DNA of 64,000 nucleotides, taken from sequence record SRR2962707_2250; one strand, written 5' to 3'. Shown here piece by piece: positions 43,036-62,499 of this stretch (the stretch's first letter is position 1; each line of letters opens with the position of its first letter). Under the pieces are notes generated by a model. It was given only the letters and a program-made list of their open reading frames with translations. It made no database searches and had not been told where the DNA came from. The position numbers and the translations under genes are program-made.

Positions 43036-43305
43036 GTTCCGCCAAAACGTCATTTTCCAAATTTTTCTTTGTCGCAATGGGAGTGAGCCTAGCCCTTTGA
43101 TGGCCTTGCTAACTCCACCATCAATTACTGGGAAGGAACTTGGCTGCACAACTATGGAGGCCTGAAGGTTTCGATGATAGACTAAGATAATCACGGGCAT
43201 GAGCCTTATGAAAGTATCTCTTCAGGTAACCTCGGCGCCTTGGTCATTGATGAGTACCAGCACAGAAACGGCGCAACTTGCACTTCAGAAACCGAGTCAG
43301 AACCG

Positions 43306-43635
43306 ATGTCCAGTAACGAACATTCTCCCCTTGTTTCAAGCGCCTTGGAGTTGTTTGGGAACCTGATAAAGGTCCGTCGGCTCGAACGTGGGATCACGCA
43401 AAAGGACTTGGCGCGATCTCTCGACATCTCTGCTCAGACTGTTCGATGTATCGAAACCGGTCAGGGTAACGTTAAGGTCGGAACAGTATTTGAGGTTGCA
43501 AACCATCTGGGGATTAGCTTGTTTGAACTGGATGAAGTCTCCGTGCATGAGATGAACGAAGAACTTCGCGACCAGCTAACTGTTCTCCCCCAAAACCTCC
43601 GACAACCCAGCAAGAGTGTATGTGTTGATTTCTGA
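43306..43635 (+). CDS. Xre/HTH_3 regulator (HipB-like antitoxin)
   Basis: IKVRRLERGITQKDLA...TVRCIETG HTH; C-terminal VDF stop overlaps the hipA start. Confidence 0.85.
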   Translation: MSSNEHSPLVSSALELFGNLIKVRRLERGITQKDLARSLDISAQTVRCIETGQGNVKVGTVFEVANHLGISLFELDEVSVHEMNEELRDQLTVLPQNLRQPSKSVCVDF

Positions 43636-44848
43636 CCAAGGAACAACTGACAAACTTTATGTTTGGACTTGGCTTGCAGGCGAAACTACGCCCGTCGTTG
43701 CTGGTGTTCTTGTAGCTGACGGTTATGTCGGCTATGGGCTGAGGGGGTCGAACACCGCTAAACATGCCTTCTATTATGGCAGAAGTTACCTCTCCAATTC
43801 AGTCGCTGTTCCACTGTCTATTCCGGACTTACCATTGAAGAACGGCCCGCTTTGGCCATACCGACGTCATGGCTTGCACGGTATCTTTCGTGATGCCCTC
43901 TCACAACGCGGCACGCTTACTGGCGAGTACAGACCGCAAGACTTTGAAAGCCCTCAACTGTTTGATTTCGCAAACAGTTATCCAGATCGAATTGGTGCGA
44001 TCGGCTTTCACCTCAGTCCAACCGAGTATATCAAAAACGAACAACCGCCCCAAAAAGATTTGGCAACCTTGGTCAGATCCGCACGTGAAGGCGGCATGCC
44101 ATTTTCCACGACTGGCGTCGGCGGTGCGCAACCTAAGTTTCTCTATGACACTGATGATCGAAAGCTAATCGTAAAGCTTTCCAACAAGAACCTAATCTCT
44201 CAGTATGATGTAAGGCTGGAGTACTTTGGCATGAAGCTCGCTAAATCTTGCGGCATTGAGTGCTCACGCACCGACCTTAAAAATGTAGATCATCAACCAA
44301 CATTGCTTGTTGAACGATTTGACCGTGAACAAACAGATAATGGTTGGCTGCGGCATCACATGGTTTCAGCTCAAACAGCGCTGGGATTGCATGATGATAA
44401 CCTGCTCAAGGCTAGTTATGAGTCACTCGCGGAATTGCTTGGCAAGCGGGCGCGAGAACCTAAGAGGCAACTCAGAGAACTCTTCCGCCGTATGGTTTTC
44501 AATGTCCTGATCGGCAATACAGATGATCATGCAAGAAACCATTCACTGTTCTGCATAGGCGAAGAAGTCAAGCTGACACCAGCCTACGACATGGCTCCAC
44601 AGATCGATCCCACTTCAGTACAATCCATGCGTATTGCGGGTCGAGACCCTCGAAGTACACTCAAGAATTGCTTGCTGGCAGCCGCGAGCTTCCAGTTGGC
44701 TCAGATTGAGGCGCAAAATGTGATTACCGAACTTAAAGAACGGGTTCTGAACCACATCCCTCGGATTGCTGAAAAAGCTAACCTGACATCACACGAACAA
44801 GGCCTCATTCAAAAACTAGTTCAACAACGCTGTCGAACTGGAGATTAA
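43625..44848 (+). CDS. hipA: HipA-family Ser/Thr kinase toxin
   Basis: GGAQPK loop, LLVERFDR, GNTDDHARNHS and LTPAYD motifs; TTG start inferred. Confidence 0.88.
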   Translation: MISDQGTTDKLYVWTWLAGETTPVVAGVLVADGYVGYGLRGSNTAKHAFYYGRSYLSNSVAVPLSIPDLPLKNGPLWPYRRHGLHGIFRDALSQRGTLTGEYRPQDFESPQLFDFANSYPDRIGAIGFHLSPTEYIKNEQPPQKDLATLVRSAREGGMPFSTTGVGGAQPKFLYDTDDRKLIVKLSNKNLISQYDVRLEYFGMKLAKSCGIECSRTDLKNVDHQPTLLVERFDREQTDNGWLRHHMVSAQTALGLHDDNLLKASYESLAELLGKRAREPKRQLRELFRRMVFNVLIGNTDDHARNHSLFCIGEEVKLTPAYDMAPQIDPTSVQSMRIAGRDPRSTLKNCLLAAASFQLAQIEAQNVITELKERVLNHIPRIAEKANLTSHEQGLIQKLVQQRCRTGD

Positions 44849-44849
44849 C

Positions 44850-45722
44850 TTGCCGAGAGATGATAACGAGTTACTTGCCCTTTTGGAGCCACTCAAAGTG
44901 TCTGAGAGCTCCCGTTACAGGCCTGCTCTGATGGAGTTTGCCAACAAGCTGTCCGTTGCGTCTGAAAATTTGTCAGCACTTGCGTCCAATCACGAACTTG
45001 ACAATGTGCGGCGCTCGGCCCTCATAGAAGATATTCACTTCAGCAATTTGATCGAGGGCTATCAAGTTCCCTACGAACAAATTGAAACACTCCTTGCGGA
45101 ACCAAAGAGTTCCGAAAGGAGTTCGGGTGAAGCTCAAATGTTGGCTGCCAATTACGTTGAAGCAGAAGTCTGGGCCAATTCTCTACCAGCTGAAACCGAT
45201 CTACTTTCCGCTCAATCGCTTTGCTCGATACACGGGAAACTGTTTAGGTGCGGTACCACTTACAGCACCTTTGTACCAGGTACGTTTAGAGAGGTCGATG
45301 TCATCGTTGGCAGCCACCTTCCCATCAGCCCCGGTGCAATACCACGCTTCGTTCAGCGGCTTTCTGAAGCCTATCGGCACGGGCCCCAGAAGGAAAGAAT
45401 CCTTAATCTAGCGTTTGCACATCATCGGCTTGTTTGGGTCCATCCATTCGTCGACGGCAACGGCCGCGTTGCAAGGTTTGTCAGCACTCAGATGCTGGCG
45501 AACACCCTACCCGCGACCCGATATTGGTCACTGTCGAAAGCCCTTTATGAGAGCAAAGAAAGGTACTTCGAACTGCTTGCAGCATGTGACATGCCAAGGC
45601 AGGGAGATCGGGATGGCAGGGGAAATATGAGCGAGGCCGCTTTGGCAGAGTTCAGCAGTTTCATTCTCAACTTGTGCTTCAGCAAGGTCAGAGAAACCAC
45701 AGAAAATTTAGAATCAGCCTAA
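44850..45722 (+). CDS. Fic-family protein
   Basis: SNLIEG and HHRLVWVHPFVDGNGRVAR motifs; starts 1 nt after the hipA stop. Confidence 0.88.
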   Translation: MPRDDNELLALLEPLKVSESSRYRPALMEFANKLSVASENLSALASNHELDNVRRSALIEDIHFSNLIEGYQVPYEQIETLLAEPKSSERSSGEAQMLAANYVEAEVWANSLPAETDLLSAQSLCSIHGKLFRCGTTYSTFVPGTFREVDVIVGSHLPISPGAIPRFVQRLSEAYRHGPQKERILNLAFAHHRLVWVHPFVDGNGRVARFVSTQMLANTLPATRYWSLSKALYESKERYFELLAACDMPRQGDRDGRGNMSEAALAEFSSFILNLCFSKVRETTENLESA

Positions 45723-45944
45723 CACTATTGCACCTTATTGTTATTCATCCCTGATAATGGGATTTTGAAAACGCTCTCAGAACACGAGACACTAAGACGC
45801 AAGACCAAATCAGAACATCAGAGTTCTTCAAGGTTCCACCAACCACGATGCAAGAGATATGAAATTACGCTCAACCTAAGCTCCGTCTCGATATAATCTC
45901 CGACGCCGATTTGGTATCCTTGCAGGTACAGTAGGTTAAGGACA

Positions 45945-46301
45945 TTGACAAAAATGCCGACAAGATCAGACGACTTGGAAAGGAAGCGGGTCTCAGCTCA
46001 ATCCGCCTTTGGGAAAATCAGCAAAGCTTGGCTTCTGTCCGAAGAACAAGCGCTAGCACTTTCGGGGACGGCACCAGAAACTACAGAGAAAGACCAACTA
46101 GAACGCCTTACATGCATCATCAGTGTTTATGTCTGTCTTCAAGAATATTTCTCTCCGGAGATTGCTGATCAGTGGGTTCAACTGAAAAACGATGGTCCAT
46201 TGTTTGAAGGTGAGAGACCAATAGACACGATGATCGAAGGCGGCGCTGATCAAATCAGGGAGATTGCGACTTATCTCAAAGCCTTGCTGCAAGGACTTTG
46301 A
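45945..46301 (+). CDS. Xre/MbcA/ParS-type antitoxin
   Basis: F..I...W.LS...A.AL N-terminus; ADQWVQLKNDGPLFEGERPIDTMIEGG C-terminal toxin-binding domain. Confidence 0.8.
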   Translation: MTKMPTRSDDLERKRVSAQSAFGKISKAWLLSEEQALALSGTAPETTEKDQLERLTCIISVYVCLQEYFSPEIADQWVQLKNDGPLFEGERPIDTMIEGGADQIREIATYLKALLQGL

Positions 46302-46511
46302 TTGACGAGGTTACCTGCAGCCACTCCAAGTAGGAAACAGGTCATCAAACCAGGATCCACACTTTACAGGTTTGTTTGGATACGTCTATTTTTTGGCTGG
46401 AATGGTCGCCGCTAACTTTGTGATACAGCATTAGAAGCTTTCTCAAATTTCGTCATAAAGGCTCGTCTTGTGAAAGCGAGAAACGTGATGGGTTTTTTGA
46501 AGACACAATAG
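46302..46511 (+). pseudogene. Possible decayed RES-domain toxin
   Basis: Begins straight after the antitoxin stop; IKPGSTLYRF...LFFG..GR resembles RES N-termini; in-frame stops follow. Confidence 0.3.
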
Positions 46512-46665
46512 CTTCGCGGGAACTTTTCTTATTCCACCTGCACGGGGTGAGATGAACTATCGTCATTGATTGAAAAGTACGCACTTCAGGCAGGATCAGC
46601 CCGTACGAGGCCCCGCAGAAAAACTGCCGAAAACTTCAACCGCAAGAATTCCACTGCAGCGACAG

Positions 46666-47118
46666 TTAAACGCCGAACTCAGTATGCATTTTTGCCTTGC
46701 TGCCAATATCTTCGATGAAGTTCGTCAAACAGCCAAGGAGTTCTTCATTGATCTCCGATCCAACAGCGCACTCCCATACGATTGCTGTACGCCATCCAAT
46801 ATCGTGTAATTTTCGTATTGCTGCCTGGTCTCTCTTGACGTTTGCAGCAAACTTTTGCGTCCAGAAATCCGTATTTGTCGATGGCACTGTCGACTTCTTG
46901 CATCCCTCATGACGATGCCAAAAGCACCCATGGACGAAAACCACAAGCCGCCACTTCGGCAGCACTATGTCCGGTGAGCCGGGCAACAGACGTACATTGA
47001 GTCTGTACCGATAGCCCACAGCGTGGAGTGCTTTTCTCAGCAGGACCTCTGGCTTCGTGTTTCGGCTCCTGATGCCTGACATCATCTTGGAGCGGGTTTT
47101 GGGGTCAACTATATCCAT
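46666..47118 (-). CDS. vsr: Very-short-patch repair endonuclease
   Basis: RSKMMSGIRSRNTKPE, LPGSPDIV, FVHGCFWHRH and VWEC motifs. Confidence 0.95.
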   Translation of the reverse strand: MDIVDPKTRSKMMSGIRSRNTKPEVLLRKALHAVGYRYRLNVRLLPGSPDIVLPKWRLVVFVHGCFWHRHEGCKKSTVPSTNTDFWTQKFAANVKRDQAAIRKLHDIGWRTAIVWECAVGSEINEELLGCLTNFIEDIGSKAKMHTEFGV

Positions 47119-47154
47119 GATTTTTCAAACATAGTGCAACCAAGATCATTTTCC

Positions 47155-47181
47155 ACCTGGTGGCACCTGGTGAAACCTGGT
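47155..47181. repeat. Three ACCTGGT copies at exact 10-bp spacing in the vsr/MTase divergent promoter
   Basis: ACCTGGT at 47155, 47165 and 47175. Confidence 0.9.
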
Positions 47182-47209
47182 ACAAGGCCCCAACGCACGG
47201 GGAGAAAAG

Positions 47210-48703
47210 ATGTCCAAAGATTTTGCCATCATTGATCTATTCGCCGGTCCAGGAGGGTTGAGTGAAGGATTTTCAAGGGCAGGCCGCGACAAGGAAACCC
47301 CAATGAAGACCCATCTCTCAATCGAGATGGATGACCACGCAATTCAAACGTTGCGACTGAGAGCATTCCTGCGGTCCTTTGACCGATTTCCCCAAGAATA
47401 TTATGACGCTATCAATAGTGGTCTTGAGCTTCCTGACTGGGCCGAGCTCTATCCCAACAATTGGAAAGTTGCGGCTAAGGAAGTACGTCAACGTGTTTTG
47501 GGAAGTGACGGTGTATTCAAGGAACTAGCGACCGAACTAGATGACGTACGCGAACGTCATCACGGCGATACTATCTTGATCGGTGGACCTCCCTGCCAAG
47601 CATACTCATTGGTTGGAAGATCGAGAAATCGGGGCAAGGCAGGCTACGTTCCCGAAGATGACGATCGGCACTTTCTTTATCGCGAGTATGTTCGCATTCT
47701 AGACCGGCTTCGCCCTGCGGCCTTTGTGATGGAAAACGTTAAGGGGATGCTATCGAGCCAAATTAATGGCGGTCGGATTTTCAGTAAAGTCCTTGACGAC
47801 CTCGAGGTGGCGGGAGATGGATACCGTTTGTTACCGCTGGCAACTTCAACCCCAATCGACGGCTCCCGAGCATTGGCCAAAGACTTTCTGATACGTTCAG
47901 AAGACTTCGGAGTTCCTCAAGCACGCCATCGAGTTATCATTCTCGGAGTTAGGGTCGATCTCGCTCAACGCCTGAAACTCCACAGCCCACTCCTCGGCGC
48001 TCCACAAAAGCAGGTGCACGTAGGCACCGCAATTGACGGACTTTCACCGCTCCGCAGCGGACTCAGCCGTGGTGATACAACAGAAGCTTGGAAAGCTGCA
48101 GTTCGTGAACAGGCTATACGCATTACCAAAACAGGAAGTATTCCAGAAGAAGTAAGGGACATCGCTCAAAAGGTTTCTTCTGCCACCAACTTGCCTGACG
48201 CAAGGTCAAGTCGCGAGAGGGCGACTGCTGGCGATATACCGAAACATCTCCTCCACTGGTTTGATGATGAGCGGCTTCGGGCAACGCTGCATCACGAGAC
48301 CCGCGGACATATCCCGGAAGATATTGGTCGCTACCTTTTCTCTTCTGCTTTTTCCAACGCGCACTCACGTTCTCCGAAACTGGACGAGTTTCCAGAGTTT
48401 TTGTTGCCAGCTCATAAGAATCGAGATTCTGGACATTTTTCAGACCGTTTCCGAACCCAAGTGAGTGGGCGCCCATCGACCACTGTCACAAGTCACATAT
48501 CCAAGGATGGTCATTATTTTATCCATCCCGATCCCACCCAGTGCCGCTCACTCACCGTAAGGGAGGCTGCGCGCTTGCAAACATTCCCTGACAACTATTT
48601 GTTCTGTGGGCCACGAACCAAACAATATCATCAAGTGGGTAATGCGGTACCACCTTACCTAGCATGGCAAATAGCTAAAGCGGTTTACAAAATTTTGGGA
48701 TAA
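47210..48703 (+). CDS. dcm: DNA (cytosine-5) methyltransferase
   Basis: Motifs I DLFAGPGG, IV GGPPCQ, VI ENVKG, VIII PQARHR, IX REAARLQTFPD and X QVGNAVPP. Confidence 0.95.
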   Translation: MSKDFAIIDLFAGPGGLSEGFSRAGRDKETPMKTHLSIEMDDHAIQTLRLRAFLRSFDRFPQEYYDAINSGLELPDWAELYPNNWKVAAKEVRQRVLGSDGVFKELATELDDVRERHHGDTILIGGPPCQAYSLVGRSRNRGKAGYVPEDDDRHFLYREYVRILDRLRPAAFVMENVKGMLSSQINGGRIFSKVLDDLEVAGDGYRLLPLATSTPIDGSRALAKDFLIRSEDFGVPQARHRVIILGVRVDLAQRLKLHSPLLGAPQKQVHVGTAIDGLSPLRSGLSRGDTTEAWKAAVREQAIRITKTGSIPEEVRDIAQKVSSATNLPDARSSRERATAGDIPKHLLHWFDDERLRATLHHETRGHIPEDIGRYLFSSAFSNAHSRSPKLDEFPEFLLPAHKNRDSGHFSDRFRTQVSGRPSTTVTSHISKDGHYFIHPDPTQCRSLTVREAARLQTFPDNYLFCGPRTKQYHQVGNAVPPYLAWQIAKAVYKILG

Positions 48704-48748
48704 AAAAGGCCTAAATGTTGGCTTGGTCAGATGGGGTGAAAGCGATCT

Positions 48749-50827
48749 CTAACCAAGCGCCTCAACCGGGATGCCATCTTCAGCCAATCGGTCGATAAGA
48801 AGTTTCATCGCATTCCTTTCAGGTCTGGAAAGCGAGATGTTTCCACCGGCCAATTTCGCCAACGCGCTATTGGATTTGTCCGTAAGAAGATGTTTTTCTT
48901 TTGCATTTTTGCGAACGATATCCGCTTTTGCGACAATCGAAAGCAGTACGACATCAAGATCAATCTCGTTATCGATTTTTTTCGTATCGCGCCCGTCTTT
49001 TCTCAAATCTTTTTCTGCATCGACACCGACCAAAACATGTTCAGGGAGATCTGTCACATCGAAGTCAGTTTTTGAAACTGCCTCCCAGCAAGCCTGCATT
49101 TTGCAGTACTCACCTACATTTCGAACGTTGGTGGGGGTACTTCTAATCGCACGAGCCACTTGAGGCGCAAGAGCAACAATGAACTCTTGAAGCTCATCAG
49201 GTACATCCTGCGACGACCAGATGATATCCCAGTTAAGCGATGCCTGCCCAAGGCTCCGTACATTATGAGCAAGCCAAGCCATCGTATAAGCCACAGTCTG
49301 CGACTTGAAACCGCGATCAAGCTGATACCAATCCGATTGCGCGATCATCTTGTCAGTCCACCTGAACAGCAGCGCCATAGAGCACACGTTCTTGAACCAA
49401 GTTTCGTTATAATCAGCCTGATGGGTCTTCCATGACTTCGCCGTTTCGTTGGCGAAATGCATAAAGCATTTCTGCGCACCCTTCGAGACAATGTCAGGTC
49501 GGCGACGGAAAGTGACCAAGTATTTTGCAAGATCCGTTTTGACCATGACTTTAGCCTTGGGAAACTCAACTTGGTACTTTCGTCTTTCCGACTGGCTGGC
49601 ATAAGCCATACCATCTCGATACTGGCCCCGCGCACGCTCGTAGAACCATTTCTCTCCTGAGAGCGCCCCATCCTGAGGCGGAGCTGCGAGAACCCGCGAA
49701 TAGCGTTCCACAAGAAGATGAAATGGGTGATTTGAGAAGAAATCTGCCTCCGAGATACGATTTTGCGTGTTCGCATAACGTGAAATAAGGGGGACTACTT
49801 TTTCAACGGCACTTTCGGGCACAACCGACAACTTCATCTGCACATGAACTTGGTCTAGTGCAGCCTTTCCCACATCCTTTGCATACAGGATTGAAGCCGT
49901 TGTCTGTCCTCCATTCACGATCTGAAGGTCACGAATGGATGAAATGGCGAGCTGACCGTCACCCAGTTCCTTGAGCTCCACCCCGGATGCCGTCGCTGTC
50001 AAACCGTTATTATAAGCGAAAAACATCTCAGGCTCTTCGCGAATCGTCGTAAGAATCCCCTTGTTTACCTTTGTTCTTGCTTGGAGGTAGGTTCTGACAT
50101 TCTGTTCAAGCAAACGTGCCCCATAGAGCCCATAAACTTCGGCCAACAACTCGCCCGGGATCGCCAATAGGTAAGATTCATAATCAGCCGATGAGCGGGA
50201 AGCTCTTAGACAAGGAATTGGACTACCGGAGATTTCTACTAGATCGACCTCGATAGCTTCGGGTGCTGCCCTTGATTTCTGAATGTCAGCATACCTGGCA
50301 ACGTCGAGCACTGTATATACGACACGGACCCCCGCAACGTCTGCCGCCAACTGCGGAGGCTTCCTCGCAACGAGGCGAGCATTGGACAGCAAAATCACAC
50401 GCAACCGTCGGATCGTATGCTGATTCGAATATATCGGATAGGCTGCTGAAAAGGCAGAGCTACTATCTTCGAGCGCGTTGATAAAATCAGGAGAGAGAGC
50501 GTTCTCAAAAAAATTGGTAGCCTGCTTCAATGCAGAATCAATACGTGACGCCTGAAGTGAATGTAGATCCTTTCCTTCCCGGTAGTCACAGACCGCCAAA
50601 TAAAGCGTCCCACGATCCGGATCAAACGCATGGCCATCGACACGATAAGGTCGGGAGCCCCCTTCTTTTCTGCAATGTGCGTACTCAAGATCAATTGTAT
50701 CGCCGTTCTCGCTCGCGGCCTCGGCATATATTTCAAAAAACGCCTCTTCCTGAAACAATCCACTTGCTTCTGCCTCAAGCATTACGTCTTCACGTAGATC
50801 CTCAAACGCCACATCCAGATCATCCAT
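48749..50827 (-). CDS. AIPR family protein (MzaE-like)
   Basis: LLEQNVRTYL, FFAYNNGLT, QIVNGGQTT, YANTQN and WFYERARGQY motifs. Confidence 0.9.
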   Translation of the reverse strand: MDDLDVAFEDLREDVMLEAEASGLFQEEAFFEIYAEAASENGDTIDLEYAHCRKEGGSRPYRVDGHAFDPDRGTLYLAVCDYREGKDLHSLQASRIDSALKQATNFFENALSPDFINALEDSSSAFSAAYPIYSNQHTIRRLRVILLSNARLVARKPPQLAADVAGVRVVYTVLDVARYADIQKSRAAPEAIEVDLVEISGSPIPCLRASRSSADYESYLLAIPGELLAEVYGLYGARLLEQNVRTYLQARTKVNKGILTTIREEPEMFFAYNNGLTATASGVELKELGDGQLAISSIRDLQIVNGGQTTASILYAKDVGKAALDQVHVQMKLSVVPESAVEKVVPLISRYANTQNRISEADFFSNHPFHLLVERYSRVLAAPPQDGALSGEKWFYERARGQYRDGMAYASQSERRKYQVEFPKAKVMVKTDLAKYLVTFRRRPDIVSKGAQKCFMHFANETAKSWKTHQADYNETWFKNVCSMALLFRWTDKMIAQSDWYQLDRGFKSQTVAYTMAWLAHNVRSLGQASLNWDIIWSSQDVPDELQEFIVALAPQVARAIRSTPTNVRNVGEYCKMQACWEAVSKTDFDVTDLPEHVLVGVDAEKDLRKDGRDTKKIDNEIDLDVVLLSIVAKADIVRKNAKEKHLLTDKSNSALAKLAGGNISLSRPERNAMKLLIDRLAEDGIPVEALG

Positions 50828-51806
50828 ATATCAATTTCTCCAAAGTCGAATGCAGGTCTGCTCCGTAAGGCTGACAGTCGGAAACACGAATTCTGTAACG
50901 TACTTGCTCCACCCCGTGCCTAAGTTCGGCGCGCTCTATACGTGGGAAATCACCCCTGATTTCGTAAACAGCTCTGTCAACCAACATCCAGATCTCGTCG
51001 TCGTACTCTTCATGCGGCTCATACCCTGCTTCCAACAGTCCAATGGCAAGAAGATCAGATGCAGTACCTCCAGTAGCTTCAGCAAGGTCAATCAGTTCTT
51101 TCGCAATAGAGTTGAGAGTGCATGCATTAGATGTACCGCTTGGCACTGGAGAAATACCTTGGTTGCAAAGTAATATTTTGCCCTGCACAGGATCCAACTG
51201 ATCCTCAGATGAAATCGAAATCATTCGATCTGCGGTTACGACTTGAGTTTTCACTTCAAAAATCGCTGAAGCAATTACAAAGTCCTGCTCGTGCCCCTCG
51301 TGTCCTGTCCACGCGAGAAGTGCGGGTAAAATTTCCATTCGCGGCAGTAGTTCGTCTCTTAGAAACAGAAGTTCACCGACCAAACCAATTCTCTCGCTCC
51401 GGGTTAGCCGGTTGTCTCGACGCCTCTTCAACATTTCGTGCCAACGATGCAGTTCTTCGAGCGTTTTTAGGAGCCCCTCAGGAGATCGAGATGCCGAAAT
51501 TGCATTGGTTGCGAGCATCAACCCTGTACACATCAGTGAGAAGTTCTGAAGATCCGCATCATCTTGCAGGACAACAACTAGACGCGTTCGGTCATTTGCC
51601 ACACTTTCGAGCTTGATCGACATCCCTTTGACACTAGGAAGAACCGGTCTTTTGTCGTCAGGATTCTCTGTATCAAGCAAGAAAACAAAACGCCCGCGAC
51701 AATCTCGACCGATACGGAAATCAAGTGGATGAGCACTGTCGGCAATGAGAACATTGCGTGCGCCGATTTCGGGTGCAAGGCTGAGAGACCTCCAACGTTC
51801 AAGCAT
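50820..51806 (-). CDS. PD-(D/E)XK nuclease-like protein (DUF4420; MzaD-like)
   Basis: GLVGELLFL, WTG...QDF...FEVKT and ISSEDQL motifs; overlaps both neighbours. Confidence 0.85.
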   Translation of the reverse strand: MLERWRSLSLAPEIGARNVLIADSAHPLDFRIGRDCRGRFVFLLDTENPDDKRPVLPSVKGMSIKLESVANDRTRLVVVLQDDADLQNFSLMCTGLMLATNAISASRSPEGLLKTLEELHRWHEMLKRRRDNRLTRSERIGLVGELLFLRDELLPRMEILPALLAWTGHEGHEQDFVIASAIFEVKTQVVTADRMISISSEDQLDPVQGKILLCNQGISPVPSGTSNACTLNSIAKELIDLAEATGGTASDLLAIGLLEAGYEPHEEYDDEIWMLVDRAVYEIRGDFPRIERAELRHGVEQVRYRIRVSDCQPYGADLHSTLEKLIYG

Positions 51807-54504
51807 CTGGCTCCCCCAACATAGCCTCGGCGTCGTCGTCCTCTTCGAATTCGTACTGATCCCGAAGTTGCGCCAGATAAACTGCGTTAACCTGGTAAGT
51901 ATGCTCTCTTGCCGGCTGCTTAGTCTCTGGCAGACAGAAAGACAACGTTACAGCGACATCACCCACTCTCAGTATATCGTCGGACTGTTCTATGTGATCT
52001 TTATCGTTACGCAGACTAGGTTCGAAGATATGAATGAGCATCAATGGATGTTTACGGACGCTACAGGCCGCACGCTCGTTTTTGTATTCGCCATTGGCTA
52101 CTCGCTGAGTTGCAATCCGTTGTTGGTCTTCATCAAGTTCAATCTCAGCATCTGGTTGATCAGCGACCCTGCTCCTCCCACCATAGACCTTATAGGACCC
52201 ATTTTTTACCAAACCCTTTTCCCGCCTTCTCAGTGAGAGGTTCTGGCCAGCAAGCAATATTGGTTTTCCATCAGTCCGACGCATGGGAATTGCGACATCC
52301 CAAACAGACATTTCGCCCGAAATTCGATCTTGAATGTAGTCCTGAAAAAGAGATGCATCCGAAATCTTGGAGAGATCGGCATGTGCTCCAAAATTGAACC
52401 GGTCGATCAAGTTCAATACTTCTCGACCGTTCACATTGTCCCAAAAAAGATAGCCCTTTGTAGCTACGTTGGGGGCTCCCAACTGCTCCAAGAAAGACGA
52501 CACGGATGCGTAATTTTCAGCACTTTTTTGGGTATCATTTGGCAGTGCATGACCTTCGACATGGCGAGCGGAGTAGTCTTGAGCGACGGTCAGCTTTTCT
52601 GCCGTCCGCATTTTATTGGCAGCTGTCACCCGGATTGCCAAAGGGCTTTGACGAACCTTAAGACCGAAATCCGCCGGTGTACTGTTGGCAGCTTTCATAC
52701 GCTTGACTTCTCTACGAAGCTCCTCGGTGGCCTCATCTACATATTCATAGTGATCGAAGGACATCTTTGGTAGGTACAGGCGGCAAATGTCCTCATAGCT
52801 AGGACGATAACCGAACCAGCGTGCCATCTGCATAAGTGTGTCGCTCGCCCCCACATTTCGGAGGAGATAAGATACGGTCAATCCCTCAAGCGTCAAACCA
52901 CGGGAAAGTGCAAGACCACCAATGGCTATGACGTGAAGGCCGTGTTCCTTGTTGAGGGTATAGTCAAGTACCCCGCCTTGCATATTTACGGTTCGGACTT
53001 CGATGCTCTGGATACCTTCGTTAAGACGTGACAGAACGTCTGACCAATTGTATTTTGTACCCGAGTATTCCCTCTCGAAGCTCTCCTTGAATTCTGCCAT
53101 CGTATCGTCCCGGATATTCTCTGGAATGAGGTTACCATGAACCGAAACCGCGTCCTTAAGTTCGGAAAGGTACGCGTGGGCATGGCCAAGAATTTGTGTC
53201 TGGATAGCATTGAAACGGCTGACGTTGATCATCATCGAACAATGTGCATCGCCCTTACCTTGCAGAACCCTAATTGCACGAGTCAGACAGAAAACCCGGA
53301 TCGCATGCTTCAGGCTTTCGGGTAGATCATTGATCAGATCCCCACTCTTATGCTTAAGCGGCAGCAAAGTGCGATAGTCGTCAACGATCTTGACCATTTC
53401 CGTCCGTAAGTCGCCGTCTTCCCTGAAGACCCTGTGCGAACCGACATAGTTCGAGGGTGGGTCGAGGGCTTTGATGAAGTTTCCAGGAAACAGGTCGTCA
53501 TGCTCCATGTCTTCGCATGATTCAGGATCAATAAAGATATTGGCAAAAGGAGTGGCCGTGTATCCGACGTATGCAGATCGCGGAAAACGGTTCAAAATCT
53601 TCCGAATTGTACCGTTTATCGCCGTCGTGAGCTTGGGGTCCTTAGCAGTATTGATCGATGCATTGTCCGCCTCATCATCGATAAGAAGTAGTGGAAGTTC
53701 GAAACCACCAGTCTGCTCTTGGTCGTCAATCCATTTCTCAAGTCTTTCTAGGACTGACTTGTTCTTCTTGGTCACAAAGATCATCGGTTCTTGGTGGCCA
53801 GTCAGACCAAAATAGATCCCATCCATGCCGGATTTGAAGTCTGAATCTCTCGTCGTTCCAACAGCAGGGATCCTCCTTTCCGTTGCAAATCTCTGGATCG
53901 GTAGAGACTGTTGTGCAGCGGCATTCGCGACCGAAATCTTTCCTATGAACGTCTCGTCCAAGCGTTCCTGCGTCTGTGTTCGCAGCGAATTCGTAATACC
54001 CGCAAGAAGAATGATAACGCGATAGCCAGCGTCCGCCGCCTTGCAAATCAGGGCCGAATAGTTGGTTGTTTTGCCCATCTGCACATTGCCCATCACCATA
54101 CCTCGGACGGCCTGATACGATGGATCAAGTGGGTTACCACAAAGATCGAGGATTTCATCCGTGTCGGAGTCCAGCGTCGCGACGACGTTCGACGGCAGCA
54201 CCCCGGTCTCACGATAGAATTTGCTGAGACGGTTCCAATAGTAGAACTGAAGGTCCGATTTCTTTTTTGAAAGCCACGGCTGGTGCCCCTTCGAAATCAC
54301 TGCACCGCGCCTTTGGGTCACACTGAAACTCGCCTGCAATTCGCGAACGATAAATGCGGTCCCTTCCTCGCCTAGATTAGTGAAAGGCCCTTCACGAACT
54401 ATTTCTTCTATGGCGCCTTCAGGCAATCCCGCACCGCTGGCAAAAAGATCTGCGTATTTCTGTTCGATGTTCAAACGGAAGTAAGCTAGCTCCGCATCAT
54501 GCAT
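51799..54504 (-). CDS. Z1-domain protein with SF2 helicase-like N-terminus (MzaC-like)
   Basis: GNVQMGKT, IDDEAD, YTATPFAN, SMMINVS, LSRGLTLEGL and QMARWFGYR motifs. Confidence 0.9.
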   Translation of the reverse strand: MHDAELAYFRLNIEQKYADLFASGAGLPEGAIEEIVREGPFTNLGEEGTAFIVRELQASFSVTQRRGAVISKGHQPWLSKKKSDLQFYYWNRLSKFYRETGVLPSNVVATLDSDTDEILDLCGNPLDPSYQAVRGMVMGNVQMGKTTNYSALICKAADAGYRVIILLAGITNSLRTQTQERLDETFIGKISVANAAAQQSLPIQRFATERRIPAVGTTRDSDFKSGMDGIYFGLTGHQEPMIFVTKKNKSVLERLEKWIDDQEQTGGFELPLLLIDDEADNASINTAKDPKLTTAINGTIRKILNRFPRSAYVGYTATPFANIFIDPESCEDMEHDDLFPGNFIKALDPPSNYVGSHRVFREDGDLRTEMVKIVDDYRTLLPLKHKSGDLINDLPESLKHAIRVFCLTRAIRVLQGKGDAHCSMMINVSRFNAIQTQILGHAHAYLSELKDAVSVHGNLIPENIRDDTMAEFKESFEREYSGTKYNWSDVLSRLNEGIQSIEVRTVNMQGGVLDYTLNKEHGLHVIAIGGLALSRGLTLEGLTVSYLLRNVGASDTLMQMARWFGYRPSYEDICRLYLPKMSFDHYEYVDEATEELRREVKRMKAANSTPADFGLKVRQSPLAIRVTAANKMRTAEKLTVAQDYSARHVEGHALPNDTQKSAENYASVSSFLEQLGAPNVATKGYLFWDNVNGREVLNLIDRFNFGAHADLSKISDASLFQDYIQDRISGEMSVWDVAIPMRRTDGKPILLAGQNLSLRRREKGLVKNGSYKVYGGRSRVADQPDAEIELDEDQQRIATQRVANGEYKNERAACSVRKHPLMLIHIFEPSLRNDKDHIEQSDDILRVGDVAVTLSFCLPETKQPAREHTYQVNAVYLAQLRDQYEFEEDDDAEAMLGEPDA

Positions 54505-55999
54505 TCGTCCACCACCCTTTTGACTTCAGATGTTCCTCAATGACCGCCGTTTGCCCGGCCCAAGGCTCGGTTACTTGCAGCAGATCCCATAACTTCTCGA
54601 ATGATCCTTCAGCATGCGCCAGAAGTGATGGCAAGGCCGCTTCGAGACGTTCGATAAAAGCATCCCGATCAAGCGCGCTCTGATTCATCATTTCAGGTCT
54701 GACCGAGAAGTCTTCGCCAATACTAACTGCCGGAAAACAATCCTCAATGACGGCAAGCGCTGCCCCGAACGACTGAGCGACTTCAGAGTCCTCATACTCA
54801 AGCATCTGCGCAATTAGCGGATGCTCGCGATTCAGATAATATCGAACCTCACCGTTACGGACATACTTTGCCCATACGGGAGTTTTACCATCGGTAGGCT
54901 TGATCCGACCTCCGCGCGATTGAAACACTTTTCCAGACTGGCTTTTGAGCCCCTTTACGATTTCTTTCAGCCGTGATCGCAATCCAGATGGCAGTTGGGC
55001 TTCAGACTTATCCACCGTTATCTTCCAAATTGCGTCGAGGCTATTGGGAATACTCACGGCTATCCTGACCAACTGAGACAACTCACCATGACGCACCAGC
55101 CGAAACCAAGTGCCATGCATTATCAGGCGATGCTGCCTATAGATGTAGAAACCCTGGTTCCGGACGAAGCCTTCCTCACCGCCCAATCTCTCATGGTCAA
55201 GTGACGAAATCTTCGAGAAATGCGGAAGGATGAAGGCCTGAACATTGAACGGTTTACCTTCCAGTGCGAGATGCTCGACTGGACCTTCCTGTGTTGCCAA
55301 ATGATCACGCAAGAACGGATCGACAGGAGCAAGCAGCCCACCATTGAACGAGATCTTCAACTTTCTGAGGCCGAACTCCCCGGCAATATAGCGGTGAAAC
55401 GTAAGTGCCAATTCAGACTTGGCGTGCGCGACTATCTCGTTGAAACCCTTGCTGCTAACCCTTCCGAACTCGGAAAGGCGGTCGCATTTGGTCCATATGA
55501 CTTCAGTTCCATCACGTTCAAGAAGCTTGCTAGTCGCAATTTTTTCAATTTCACAGGGCTCCAGTATCGCCATTTTCCAGTCTGTAAGATCATCGAGATC
55601 CCAGCTTGCACCAGAAAGAACCCCTTTCTTCCTCGTCAGAACAGTCAAATGCCTGCATTGGGAAAACGACGCAGACTTCATGCCCCAACCAAAGCGCCCC
55701 AAGTCGTCGTCAGCGCGCTCATCATCGGGATTTGCACTTGCAGGCCGCATGGCATCACAAAGTTCCTCTTCGCTCAGACCATGGCCGTCGTCAAGAATTC
55801 GGACTTCCGGCTCACCATCGCAACGGACACAGAGAATATCGATAGAGCGTGCCTTGGCCTTGATGCTATTGTCCAGCAGGTCAGCAAGTGCACTTGGCAA
55901 GTCGTAGTTTCCAAAGCTCCGCGCAGACGTCATAAGCGCAGACGCATCAGGTGGATTATTTGTGTACTTCACCAAGCGTTGAAACCCTATCCAGAACAT
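54497..55999 (-). CDS. GHKL/MORC-type ATPase (HATPase_c_3; MzaB-like)
   Basis: ALADLLDNSI, DDGHG, DLGRFGWGMKSASFSQ, GT and QGFYIYR motifs; alternative GTG start at 55972. Confidence 0.9.
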   Translation of the reverse strand: MFWIGFQRLVKYTNNPPDASALMTSARSFGNYDLPSALADLLDNSIKAKARSIDILCVRCDGEPEVRILDDGHGLSEEELCDAMRPASANPDDERADDDLGRFGWGMKSASFSQCRHLTVLTRKKGVLSGASWDLDDLTDWKMAILEPCEIEKIATSKLLERDGTEVIWTKCDRLSEFGRVSSKGFNEIVAHAKSELALTFHRYIAGEFGLRKLKISFNGGLLAPVDPFLRDHLATQEGPVEHLALEGKPFNVQAFILPHFSKISSLDHERLGGEEGFVRNQGFYIYRQHRLIMHGTWFRLVRHGELSQLVRIAVSIPNSLDAIWKITVDKSEAQLPSGLRSRLKEIVKGLKSQSGKVFQSRGGRIKPTDGKTPVWAKYVRNGEVRYYLNREHPLIAQMLEYEDSEVAQSFGAALAVIEDCFPAVSIGEDFSVRPEMMNQSALDRDAFIERLEAALPSLLAHAEGSFEKLWDLLQVTEPWAGQTAVIEEHLKSKGWWTNA

Positions 56000-56205
56000 C
56001 TCCTCCTAATATAGTGACCATCTTTTTTTTCTAACGTAAATGGTTATTTCTGAGATTCTCAAGAAGAATGGAAAAGTTAAAGCGCCACAAAGCCTTGATT
56101 TCGCTCAGCACTCATAAAAGAGCATACTTGCGGAGTCGGTCATTTCCAGCTAGATTCAAATTTGGTAAGAGATCTTGCTGGACTTCGCGTCCTGTAAGTT
56201 TCAAT

Positions 56206-56234
56206 AAAGGCCCGCCCGGCAAAGGCGGGCCTTT
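56206..56234. terminator. Intrinsic terminator directly after rep
   Basis: AAAGGCCCGCC-CGGCAAA-GGCGGGCCTTT. Confidence 0.75.
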
Positions 56235-57239
56235 TTATGTGATGATCTTCATTTTGTCCTCCATAGTCATGTGACGATGCTTTCTGCGTCTTAAGCGATC
56301 CTTGGTTGGCGTCTTTACAAAGAACGCCTGCTTATGCTCTTCGGGATCAATGTGTTCTAGAATCATCCCCTCATCTGTCAGCTTTACGGCGTTTGGACCA
56401 AAGGCTGTTGAGGCAGTCTTAAGGACTGGCGCGTATCGGTTTCTAAACCTTCCCGGCGTTTCGTTGTATCCAAAGAAATTAATCAGCTCGTCCCATCCAA
56501 CAAACTCTCTTTTGTTCTCGGAAACCTGCGGCAGCCGGTAAGAAAGAAACATCAAGAGATCAATGGCAAAAGACGACCCTGCAAGGCATTTCAAGATTTC
56601 TGTCGGGATTGGAACGGAATCAGTTAAAAACCCCATGTAGGCTTGCTCGGTCAGTGTTATTGAGGCTGGCCATCTCATCTTCGCGGGATGGCCATTCAAA
56701 AAGTGGTGAATGTCACTCTCTGCGAAGGTGGCGCCTTCAATGATGCCCTGGCTATTGAAGATGCTTATGGTTTGATTTTCGGTGTTGGCATGACTCAAAC
56801 TAAAGTGACAAAGCGTTAGGCGGAGTATCTGCTCTTTTAGCTGAGAAAGTGTGTATCCACTTACGGACAACCCCATCGAGGCAACCCAGTCGCGTATTAC
56901 GGGAATTTCGATGTTCCGATCGCCAAATCTTCTACTGGGATCCTTAGCCTGTGCAGAAAGCCAAATAAGAAAGAGCCTCGCCTTCGAGCCATATGGGATC
57001 CCAAAATATTGAGGGCTTTCAACACCGCCAATCGTAAGATCAAGAGCTAAAGGTGTCACTGTGAGGCTCAGATTAGCTATTCTCCTATCGAACGAAGCAG
57101 TGTTCTTGGCAGCGCTTTTGTGTGGCAGGCCCGCAATTAAAAAGGTGCTATGGGAGCTTAGAACAGCGTTACCTAATCTGCGATCAGTACTCGCCTGAAG
57201 ATTGCCACTGATCAGATCAAAACGCTTTGGAGTGATCAC
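56235..57239 (-). CDS. repA: Plasmid-type replication initiator (RepA_C/IncW-RepA-like)
   Basis: AGLPH, GIPYGSKARLFLIWL, LKEQILRL, WPASITL, SFAIDL..FLSYRL and W..L..FFG motifs; GTG start with GAGG RBS. Confidence 0.75.
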   Translation of the reverse strand: MITPKRFDLISGNLQASTDRRLGNAVLSSHSTFLIAGLPHKSAAKNTASFDRRIANLSLTVTPLALDLTIGGVESPQYFGIPYGSKARLFLIWLSAQAKDPSRRFGDRNIEIPVIRDWVASMGLSVSGYTLSQLKEQILRLTLCHFSLSHANTENQTISIFNSQGIIEGATFAESDIHHFLNGHPAKMRWPASITLTEQAYMGFLTDSVPIPTEILKCLAGSSFAIDLLMFLSYRLPQVSENKREFVGWDELINFFGYNETPGRFRNRYAPVLKTASTAFGPNAVKLTDEGMILEHIDPEEHKQAFFVKTPTKDRLRRRKHRHMTMEDKMKIIT

Positions 57240-58594: not shown

Positions 58595-58682
58595 TTGCCC
58601 CGTAGATTTCTTACTTTTACCCCGTAAATTTCTTATTTTAACCCGCACATTTCTTATTATTGCCCCGTAAATTTCTTATTAT
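58595..58682. repeat. Four 21-22 bp direct repeats (iteron-like)
   Basis: Approximate consensus TTRCCCCGTAAATTTCTTATT; spacings 22/21/22; flanked by AT-rich DNA. Confidence 0.85.
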
Positions 58683-58892
58683 TCTCTCTGTAAGCAATTG
58701 AAAATATGGATTAAATTCCCTCCCGAACATAAAGAACACTTTAGAACATAAGAGAATCTCTATTATTTCTTCGACACTTCGTGCCGAACATAAATTCTTT
58801 TTGTCTGGATTTGACTTCTCAAGTTTTGATCTCAAATAGATTCCTCACGCCACAGCATGCTTGGTTATCCATTCAGAGGAACTAATGAACTT

Positions 58893-60247: not shown

Positions 60248-62020
60248 TTGTATAGAGAAATTCACAACACTCCGGTTCCGAACACCGTTCCCCAGAATTT
60301 GAAAGAACTCCAGAATTTTATTACCCACTCCTCGCTCCCCCCAAGTAAGCGCAGAAAGCTAGGTAATGACATCCAGTCTGTAGGTCACTGGCTACAACAA
60401 CCTCTTGCTCAGATCTCCACATCACCAAGGAAACTAAGCCTTGCGCTGATAGAGCTTAAACGCAGAAGGATACCAAGAATATCAAGCAAGCGTCGGACAA
60501 ACGTAACAAGCAACTTGCGACAGGCGCTGGAAGTTTCCGGCAATTGCTCACGACTGAACAGCACCTCATTACCGAAAGGGCCTTGGACCAAGCTCTACAC
60601 TGATTTCCTAGACTCACCTGAGAAGTCAATACTCAGACCCTTTGCGAAATACTGTGCAGCGAACGACATCATCCCTTCAACCGTATCCTACGAAGTGTTT
60701 GAAGCTTGGTATCAATGGAAGGAGGAGAACCTGTTAAGGGTCACGTCCAACCACAAAAAATCAATGCTGCGCGCGATCAAATGCTGGAACGTTCTTGTTA
60801 CACAGGCTGGCACATTTGAGTTGTGCCAAGTAGACACGCGCTGTAAGCGCCCACCTGCGGGTCTAATCAATCACCTTTTGCCTGCAAGCTTTCTGATCGA
60901 CTTGGTCAATTTCAAGAATCTTCGAGGCGCGCAGATTACAAGGCCTTCTGAACCAATCAGCCGCTATCACGAAGCCTTTCAACGATCGAATGGCGCCCCG
61001 TTGTCGGCGACCAAGGTCGAGCATTGTGTTTCATCTGTGAAGCTTGCGGCCAAGACCGCCATTGCCTTGGGAATAAAACAAGCGGACGATCTCAGGACGC
61101 TATCTGATGTTCTAACTGTCGAAATAGCGAGCAAGACTGTCGAACAGGCAGAGAACCGAAATGGTCCCAGCGAATACCTTCTCTCCATTGCAAAAGACCT
61201 TAGATGTGTCGCCAAACGTTGGACATCATTGTCTCAGCTGGAGGAAACGCAATGGAAGGAGCTAATCGCAGGCATCAGCAATCACCTCGCTGTCTCGATC
61301 GGTCATCACCGGAACTTTATGACCGAGAAAAATCGAACGAAGCTGCTGAGAGTGCTGGAAGACAAAGCACTGGAGCGACTGATTTCATTCCCTAGGAAAA
61401 CCCTGAATACAAACGAGGAATACCGGCTAAAACAGGGTACCGTCACATACAACATGGCGCTCGACGTTTGTTGTGCGGTTGCTGTGGCGATTTTATTAAC
61501 GCTGCCTCTTCGCCGCGGAAATCTGTGCCGGTTGAAATGGAAGACCAATGTATCGACTGCAGCAGATGATGAAACTGGATTTTTAAGTATCCCAGGGAAC
61601 GAAGTTAAGAACAAACGTCCCCTTACTGCCATCTTGCCAAAGCATGTTTGTCACCTGCTCTGGCTGTATCGAGAACACTACTGGCCAGTTCTACACCCAA
61701 AGGATAGCCACTGCCCATTTCTATTCCCGACCCGAGACGGTCGTCATCGTGCTGCGCAGCCATTGGCAGACATGATTGCCCGCCGCATCAAAGAAGCAAC
61801 CAATCTCGAAATCAACGTTCACTTGTTTCGCCATATCGTCGCGACACTTGCAATTCAAGAAGCGAGCAAAAGCGGAGAAATATCTCACGCCCGCTCAATC
61901 GTTGAAGGATTGCTAGGCTCGTCTCCTGGCAGCAATGTTTCACATCGATACGCAGAACTGACAACGACAATTGCCGCTGACTGGTTTCAACGGAACGTGA
62001 CTGCAAAGTTTCTTGAATAA
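60248..62020 (+). CDS. Large tyrosine recombinase-family protein
   Basis: LPLRRGNL (R), EVKNKRP (K), HLFRH (HxxR), LLGS in place of LLGH, HRY (Y); start uncertain. Confidence 0.8.
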   Translation: MYREIHNTPVPNTVPQNLKELQNFITHSSLPPSKRRKLGNDIQSVGHWLQQPLAQISTSPRKLSLALIELKRRRIPRISSKRRTNVTSNLRQALEVSGNCSRLNSTSLPKGPWTKLYTDFLDSPEKSILRPFAKYCAANDIIPSTVSYEVFEAWYQWKEENLLRVTSNHKKSMLRAIKCWNVLVTQAGTFELCQVDTRCKRPPAGLINHLLPASFLIDLVNFKNLRGAQITRPSEPISRYHEAFQRSNGAPLSATKVEHCVSSVKLAAKTAIALGIKQADDLRTLSDVLTVEIASKTVEQAENRNGPSEYLLSIAKDLRCVAKRWTSLSQLEETQWKELIAGISNHLAVSIGHHRNFMTEKNRTKLLRVLEDKALERLISFPRKTLNTNEEYRLKQGTVTYNMALDVCCAVAVAILLTLPLRRGNLCRLKWKTNVSTAADDETGFLSIPGNEVKNKRPLTAILPKHVCHLLWLYREHYWPVLHPKDSHCPFLFPTRDGRHRAAQPLADMIARRIKEATNLEINVHLFRHIVATLAIQEASKSGEISHARSIVEGLLGSSPGSNVSHRYAELTTTIAADWFQRNVTAKFLE

Positions 62021-62078
62021 ATTAATTTCCGGAATTTTTTGGAGAAGCCATCAATTAATTAAGGCTTTTCCAAAAATT

Positions 62079-62091
62079 CAAGTAGTTGATT
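62079..62091 (-). promoter_or_regulatory. IHF consensus site upstream of xis/int
   Basis: Minus strand AATCAACTACTTG matches WATCAANNNNTTR. Confidence 0.5.
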
Positions 62092-62249
62092 TTATTGTTA
62101 AAATTATAACTTAAGTAGAAAACTCATTATTTCATGAAGCTTCTTTGAACTCTTAAACTCAGATCGTTTGAAATTAATTCAACAAATAATTTCGGGAATC
62201 TGGAAACGAACTCAAATCGTCTTTAGCACAATTTGAAGACGAGAGTTTG

Positions 62250-62474
62250 ATGCGATTACTGAACGCTAAAGAAGTTGCCTACCGTTTGGGCTACTCAACC
62301 TCCTGGTTCCATAAAAACCGTATAACGCTCTATCACAACGGCTTTCCGTTCCCCCGCCCCGGCACCAAACGTTGGGATCCAGTCGCTGTCAGCAACTGGA
62401 TGCACGAAGGCGAAAGCAATCCATCATCCTCCCGCAATGTTTCCGCAAGCCGGCAGGCCTTGAACCAGCTGTAA
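62250..62474 (+). CDS. AlpA/excisionase-like HTH protein
   Basis: RLLNAKEVAYRLGYSTSW...GFPFP...RW...V..W pattern; directly upstream of the integrase. Confidence 0.8.
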   Translation: MRLLNAKEVAYRLGYSTSWFHKNRITLYHNGFPFPRPGTKRWDPVAVSNWMHEGESNPSSSRNVSASRQALNQL

Positions 62475-62499
62475 TCAGCACTTCTTGAAGGAATTACCA

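Follow-up and report, generated by a model that had tools for sequence, protein, structure and literature searches.

Paired CCTGG boxes between divergent vsr and C5-methylase genes: putative promoter-site autoregulation in proteobacterial defence cassettes

Why does the short gap between two divergent genes, one encoding a Vsr-type endonuclease and the other a C5 cytosine methylase, hold three copies of ACCTGGT at 10-bp intervals? We analysed a 64,000-nt stretch of DNA (sequence record SRR2962707_2250), hereafter the window, in which the elements concerned lie as follows, the three copies being read directly from the sequence:

46666-47118, minus strand: vsr, very-short-patch T:G mismatch endonuclease, 150 aa (Pfam PF03852, E 1.2e-31, 108.8 bits versus 27)
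47119-47209, no strand: divergent vsr/methylase spacer, 91 bp (ORF list and sequence)
47155-47161, plus strand: site 1, ACCTGGT (core CCTGG 47156-47160), conserved
47165-47171, plus strand: site 2, ACCTGGT (core 47166-47170), specific to this window
47175-47181, plus strand: site 3, ACCTGGT (core 47176-47180), conserved, overlapping a candidate extended -10 element
47210-48703, plus strand: C5 cytosine DNA methylase, 497 aa (Pfam PF00145, DNA_methylase, E 7.4e-49, 167.4 bits)

The preliminary description of this DNA had placed ACCTGGT at 47155, 47165 and 47175 in the 91-bp gap and had noted that the first two copies extend further; the sequence and the ORF list confirm the former, and CACCTGGTG at 47154-47162 and 47164-47172 confirms the latter. 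All three copies are contained in TTTTCCACCTGGTGGCACCTGGTGAAACCTGGTACAAGG (47149-47187). Repeat units 1 and 2 are identical at nine of ten positions (90%), and Tandem Repeats Finder describes a period-10 array of 2.8 copies (47154-47181), one of only three arrays (four rows) in the 64 kb with a score of at least 40. The spacer (47119-47209) gave no Rfam match above chance, and its RNA fold does not exceed that of shuffled sequences (z +0.61).

The two flanking genes, like the Mza-like genes described below, are ordinary members of their families. The Vsr scores 143.1 bits with NCBIfam TIGR00632 (cutoff 97.85) and shares 42% identity with its E. coli K-12 counterpart across 149 aa (residues 2-147), placing it in the Vsr family. 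Residues M14, I17, F67, W68, W86, K89 and N93, which we take to be DNA contacts in E. coli Vsr, are kept in the alignment, and may set the sequence context of the T:G mismatch that is nicked. The methylase translation contains DLFAGPGG, GGPPCQAYS, FVMENVKG, PQARHRVI, RSLTVREAARLQTFPD and QVGNAVPP, and with these motifs (I, IV, VI, VIII, IX and X) it belongs to the C5 methyltransferases; motif I starts at residue 9, and there is no N-terminal DNA-binding extension. By profile and TRD (target-recognition domain) the enzyme does not match the Dcm/EcoRII type, scoring 56.7 bits with the Dcm subfamily model NF007772 against a cutoff of 710. Only residues 4-279 and motif IX align with E. coli Dcm (BLASTP, hhalign), leaving the TRDs unalignable, and solved structures offered nothing closer than the general C5 fold, as in HaeIII and DNMT1. 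Among PADLOC models the methylase matches DrmMII best (PDLC02649, 290.6 bits), although the window differs from DISARM in having this DrmMII-matching methylase without the drmABC genes. The DrmMII of class 2 DISARM has been reported to mark CCWGG; that of Serratia marks MTCGAK, and the motif of the methylase therefore cannot be read off from the model name. Vsr partners are also on record for other motifs, e.g. YGCCGGCR in Caulobacter, and Vsr deprived of its partner methylase has been reported to damage DNA in Caulobacter.

Is the array more than chance? ACCWGGT occurs seven times in the window, namely the array's three copies and the four that the preliminary description had rightly listed as isolated. 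Shuffled sequences hold 4.9 ± 2.6 copies and at least seven were reached in 22 of 100 shuffles, so the number of copies is unremarkable, and what stands out is their clustering alone. CCWGG occurs 49 times; the array's three sites span 20 bp, and the tightest other triple, having no site in common with the array, spans 342 bp. When 49 sites were placed randomly, three fell within 20 bp in 0.46% of 20,000 trials, and at the window's density the 91-nt spacer expects 0.07 CCWGG (P for at least three, 5e-5), both estimates assuming an independence of sites that is untrue for a tandem duplication. Since the three copies possibly originated by 10-bp duplication and would then not be independent events, comparison with relatives is the real test.

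Across the window, CCWGG is the most under-represented 5-mer (49 against 121.7 expected, O/E 0.40, z -6.6), and the next are the GANTC words GAATC (0.51) and GACTC (0.47). This CCWGG/GANTC pattern is common to nine related genomes, with the cassette present or absent. CCWGG O/E was 0.40 in the window, 0.52-0.65 in four cassette-bearing relatives and 0.27-0.74 in five without the cassette; among the fetched loci it was 0.65 for those with spacer sites, 0.80 for those with site-free spacers and 0.76 in the rest. We rejected a CCWGG avoidance specific to cassette carriers, because depletion is similar in the four carriers and the five non-carriers. A fourth CCWGG lies at 47249-47253, 40 nt inside the methylase gene and within the GPGG codons of motif I. 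It was rejected as a hidden fourth site, since the Pro codon is CCA or CCT in 34 of 68 relatives and is unbiased.

The close carriers are four genomes related to Thalassospira sp. HF15 (L004), with methylases ~90% identical to that of the window, and the same spacer is found on two metagenome contigs, giving six close relatives altogether. All six keep the 91-bp length and match the window exactly at sites 1 and 3 and the bases flanking these, whereas the spacer varies elsewhere. The middle unit, however, reads CTTGG in L082, L084, L119 and L120 and TTTGG in L004 and L083, and in none of the six CCTGG. The triplet with 10-bp phasing is thus a feature of the window only; what has been conserved is a pair of sites at a distance of 20 bp. 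The triple phasing stressed in the preliminary description is accordingly not supported as the conserved unit; what recurs is a pair 19-20 bp apart. An alignment of nine spacers, whose methylases are 68-100% identical, contains only two conserved blocks, ATTTTYSACCTGGT and AAACCT(G/A)GTAnA: site 1 belongs to one of them, and the latter, which holds site 3, is the best-conserved block of the spacer. TTTTCCA is also kept in the window's clade. The sites turn over within this clade, with sites 1, 2 and 3 in the window, 1 and 3 in L004 and L003, a shifted site 2 plus site 3 in L002, only site 3 in L005 and only site 1 in L001.

The three-copy 10-bp array is probably without function as such, its middle copy being a by-product either of 10-bp slippage or conversion between units 1 and 2 or of a T-to-C change in an older CTTGG, possibly driven by Vsr, and this would be compatible with a functional two-site design. 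Besides the absence of a middle CCTGG from six relatives in which the spacer length of 91 bp and units 1 and 3 are retained, this account is favoured by the near-identity of units 1 and 2 in the window, which are less alike in L004. Two further loci, L023 and L031, carry three sites, spaced 8+11 and 7+15 and not 10+10. On the other hand, three-site arrays have arisen at least three times (the window, L023 and L031), and even within the promoter spacer a third site would provide one more target facing the same side of the helix. The middle-unit variants CCTGG, CTTGG and TTTGG, together with ACCTAGT and ACTTGGT in other lineages, lie on the axis of 5mC deamination and VSP repair. In the 9.3-kb alignment of three cassettes, six of ten single CCWGG changes are inner-C transitions, whereas five palindromic control words give 20 of 95 (Fisher P 0.014); in the same comparison against all other NCWGN words (84 of 206), the difference is not significant (P 0.33).

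The two-site design extends well beyond this clade. A scan of genome contigs confirmed 588 methylase relatives, and the survey used the best 80 of these. A vsr lies divergently beside the methylase gene in 51 of the best 80, which with the window gives 52 spacers, mostly 57-92 bp long with one of 207 bp. CCWGG is present in 39 of the 52, with at least two sites in 19 and three in 3, and is missing from the other 13. The 61 sites in 3,919 spacer nt correspond to 15.6 per kb, against 2.14 per kb elsewhere in the same loci; 8.6 sites were expected. We then grouped the methylases at 60% identity into 39 clusters, 18 with and 21 without a divergent vsr. Over the 39 clusters, upstream enrichment was seen for CCWGG (20.9 against 8.3 expected) and for no other G+C-rich 5-mer of its class. 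Ten of the 18 divergent-vsr clusters carry CCWGG in the spacer (binomial P 8e-5 to 6e-4), whereas among clusters without a divergent vsr a site within 100 nt occurs in 5 of 21, which is the chance level (P 0.37). The preliminary description had proposed as a test that orthologous vsr-methylase spacers keep such sites, and these spacer and cluster counts bear it out. In 15 of the 19 loci with at least two sites, the first-to-last span is 19-20 bp, in Rhodobacterales, Sphingomonadales and Marinobacter, and the downstream site reads CCTGGTAnAnn throughout these groups and Methylobacter. The A...T flanks of ACCWGGT are found at only 22 of the 61 spacer sites. As a general word, ACCWGGT accordingly fails; the part of that earlier proposal which may still hold concerns the window's clade, where both conserved sites read ACCTGGT and ACCWGGT is possible as the recognition word. 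A co-variation of motif and TRD, also suggested as a check, did not appear: the TRDs of 76 relatives could be aligned (29-83% identity) and did not split by spacer sites.

Where the boxes lie relative to the promoters was examined by eye and with the orthologue alignments, which gave two candidate elements:

47128-47155, minus strand: weak candidate vsr promoter, with -35 TGGAAA (47150-47155), a 16-bp spacer and -10 TATGTT (47128-47133), by eye
47178-47186, plus strand: candidate extended -10 of the methylase promoter, with TG (47178-47179), one nucleotide and TACAAG (47181-47186), by eye and from conservation of TGGTAnAnn in orthologues

A consensus promoter scan reported nothing for the methylase or vsr in the spacer 47119-47209. 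By eye, TGGTACAAG at 47178-47186 fits the extended -10 form TGnTAnAnn. The methylase transcript would start near 47192, ~18 nt before the ATG, with a Shine-Dalgarno GGAG downstream of the predicted start at 47199-47202. The vsr candidate, if real, might give a near-leaderless mRNA. On this predicted map, site 1 would occupy -37 to -33 of the methylase promoter and abut the vsr -35 hexamer where the two -35 regions meet, and site 2 would fall at -27 to -23 inside the methylase promoter spacer. Site 3 would cover -17 to -13, its top-strand inner C being at -16 and its bottom-strand inner C pairing with G -14 of the TG motif. For the largest clade, with its 70-bp spacers, GGTATACC could be a -10 element in both directions. 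Inspection by eye spoke against TGGCAC in the window as a sigma-54 element: it lacks the GC element downstream, and its place is taken by TTACAT or TGACAC in relatives.

Our preferred reading is that the CCTGG boxes are the methylase's own putative CCWGG-type targets placed in its core promoter, with feedback by methylation or by occupancy, a reading that we regard as evenly poised between right and wrong. One box would lie over the -35 region where the back-to-back promoters meet and the other on the extended -10, the third copy in the window lying between them. When methylase is scarce or the DNA newly replicated, the sites would be unmodified or hemimethylated and the promoter would fire; when methylase is plentiful, the sites would be methylated or occupied by the enzyme, and RNA polymerase binding would be lowered. 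The methylase, and possibly Vsr too, would thereby come under negative feedback. Since the methylase has no N-terminal DNA-binding extension, any such effect must act through catalytic DNA binding. Seven lines of evidence count for this feedback reading: conservation of sites 1 and 3 in close relatives, conservation in divergent spacers, the geometry, the turnover of sites, the variant axis, the travel of the boxes with the cassette and precedent. As two of the sites are kept in distant relatives, the methylase would probably use them to gauge and limit its own production. The tentative assignment of CCWGG as the target comes from indirect pointers in the sequences, namely the boxes themselves, the Vsr partner, the DrmMII match and the variant spectrum. 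Counting against the feedback reading are the TRD unlike that of Dcm and the other motifs on record for DrmMII and Vsr partners, the single orientation of nearly all spacer sites, the 13 spacers with no site and the chance-level counts upstream of methylases lacking a divergent vsr, the non-significant NCWGN comparison, a CCWGG depletion shared with non-carriers, and the empty promoter scan. So do reports that, in E. coli and Caulobacter, 5mC within promoters left local transcription without detectable change.

Alternatively, the boxes might be ordinary expression signals of a compact divergent cassette, unrelated to the methylase target, with TGGTA as the extended -10 and the upstream box as part of a -35 or as a vsr ribosome-binding site, CCAGGA. 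All but one of the 61 spacer sites read CCTGG on the methylase-sense strand, 22 of them followed by TA. A CCWGG enzyme is indifferent to orientation, so this bias counts against the boxes being CCWGG targets, and with the confinement of the enrichment to the divergent arrangement it means that they could be plain promoter or ribosome-site elements. The 70-bp spacers point the same way, their upstream box lying 9 nt from the vsr start with TCCTGG reading CCAGGA on the vsr strand, as does a TRD unlike that of Dcm. In the window's clade, however, the upstream box lies 37 nt from the vsr start and so does not act as a ribosome site. Furthermore, at least six clusters keep the CC before TGGTA although their methylases share only 44-55% identity, and we know of no promoter role for a CC at this place. 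Plain signals would also have to account for boxes that shift within the clade while their count is kept, for the independent three-site arrays of L023 and L031, and for variants that cluster on the CTWGG/CCWAG axis. We consider this alternative rather unlikely.

The boxes travel with the cassette across classes (Alpha- and Gammaproteobacteria), and the only sequence-specific DNA proteins that travel along are the methylase and Vsr. It is very improbable that some further DNA-binding protein, be it a regulator of the host or a cassette product so far unrecognised, uses the direct repeats as its operator. Repeats of this kind, with a spacing of one or two helical turns, are typical of operators, and an HTH protein is encoded close by (43240-43635). 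The boxes, however, are kept in alpha- and gammaproteobacterial cassettes with different neighbours and effectors, so that a binder would have to be either universal or carried along with vsr and the methylase gene, and the HTH gene adjoins a HipA-like kinase gene outside the conserved 9.3-kb block.

Self-limitation of the methylase through its own promoter sites, the reading that we prefer, can be compared with known systems. LlaDII has a C5 enzyme, and CfrBI presumably combines a single site with N4-methylcytosine, as against two or three boxes and a C5 enzyme here. The methylase genes of CfrBI, AhdI and LlaDII have been described as controlled by promoter methylation, a mode of regulation said to be rarely used, and M.EcoRII, a CCWGG enzyme, has been reported to repress its own gene. 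The analogy with CfrBI drawn in the preliminary description is apt, as judged from a review of promoter-methylation control. The CfrBI genes are divergent, like those of the window; their promoters are described as overlapping, as is predicted here, and methylation of CfrBI's own site in the overlap lowers the methylase promoter. The partner gene encodes the restriction enzyme in CfrBI and Vsr in the window. In AhdI and LlaDII, promoter methylation is reported to affect only the methylase gene, which would liken them to the feedback proposed here, although they are classical type I-like and type II systems. M.EcoRII and the dual-function methylases SsoII/Ecl18kI/MspI differ in having an N-terminal repressor region, whereas the window methylase begins directly with motif I and has a TRD that does not align with the Dcm/EcoRII type. 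In E. coli dcm-vsr, a C5 methylase is paired with Vsr as in the window, but the genes are described as overlapping and co-transcribed, in contrast to the divergent pair with its 91-bp control region. What is new here is best filed as putative promoter-site autoregulation of a modification gene, attached to vsr and to defence systems other than classical R-M.

The gene content downstream of the methylase shows which defence systems these are. The methylase gene is convergent with a Mza-like four-gene defence operon (48749-55999, minus strand), whose Pfam assignments are as follows:

48749-50827, minus strand: AIPR
50820-51806, minus strand: DUF4420, PD-(D/E)XK
51799-54504, minus strand: Z1
54497-55999, minus strand: HATPase (HATPase_c_3)

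PADLOC scored MzaC at 423 bits, MzaE at 247 bits and MzaD at 57 bits, and the NCBIfam MzaB-E models match the operon in the MzaB-E order, all well below their equivalog cutoffs. HATPase, Z1, DUF4420 and AIPR stand here in the same order as in MzaABCDE, but the validated mza of E. coli and Salmonella has in addition a sigma-factor-like mzaA, and the descriptions covered name no methylase among its five genes. No MzaA was found among the eight ORFs scanned with PADLOC (within 43616-54504). A system of cytosine methylase, Z1 and DUF4420 had been predicted earlier, and mzaABCDE has been reported to be active against T4. The region upstream of the defence operon (56000-56234) contains no CCWGG. Over 46746-56048 of the window, L115 (G021) and L116 (G022) share only ~2 kb, comprising vsr and the methylase gene at 85-86% nucleotide identity (blastn pieces >300 nt), and G003 and G001 share the whole 9.3 kb. 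The ~2-kb sharing in two of the four close carriers suggests, as far as sequence comparison goes, that the effector operon has been exchanged or diverges faster.

Other gene sets are joined to the vsr-methylase module elsewhere: DUF6339 with two unnamed genes (L008, L054), an SNF2 helicase (L021), a 1710-aa FtsK-like protein (L024), UvrD with MZB (L049) and DrmE_C with NERD/UvrD (L030). Attachment of such different effector sets to the same module suggests a portable modification unit. At the 20 loci with no detectable Mza genes, no EcoRII-like nuclease was found beside the methylase in the 45 of 78 candidate ORFs that were scanned. It is tentatively possible that vsr and the methylase gene form a portable self-gauging module, in which the paired targets at -35 and -14 would read the methylation state, hemimethylated after replication and unmethylated in a new host, and would set the output of methylase and Vsr in the service of many unrelated effectors; the CTWGG-to-CCWGG bias of Vsr could then create sites such as the middle copy.

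If the boxes are cognate sites, the predicted self mark of the Z1-DUF4420-AIPR systems is a CCWGG-type 5mC, and the locus would illustrate how a balance is struck between a methylase and a Vsr with the potential to damage DNA. A conserved two-site version across proteobacterial defence islands would also widen the known use of promoter-methylation regulation. The literature covered on Mza, DUF4420, Z1, Vsr and CCWGG in Alphaproteobacteria contained no report of these boxes or of the methylase motif, and that on Z1-DUF4420-AIPR (Mza-like) systems and the other effector sets named no self mark.

On one flank of the cassette (43240-46301) lie the HTH and HipA-like kinase pair, a Fic-domain gene and a weak Xre-antitoxin-like ORF, and on the other (60248-63633) a nucleotidyltransferase gene and two integrase-family genes. 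In between, a plasmid-iteron-like repeat of four 22-bp units, alternatively described as 1.9 units of 43 bp, lies at 58598-58683, ~1.4 kb from a RepA_C-domain gene (ORF 56235-57239, minus strand). From the HTH/HipA-like and Fic genes, the RepA_C gene with its iteron-like repeats and the two integrases, the region looks like a mobile or plasmid-like island, and its flanking genes together resemble a mobile defence/toxin-antitoxin island.
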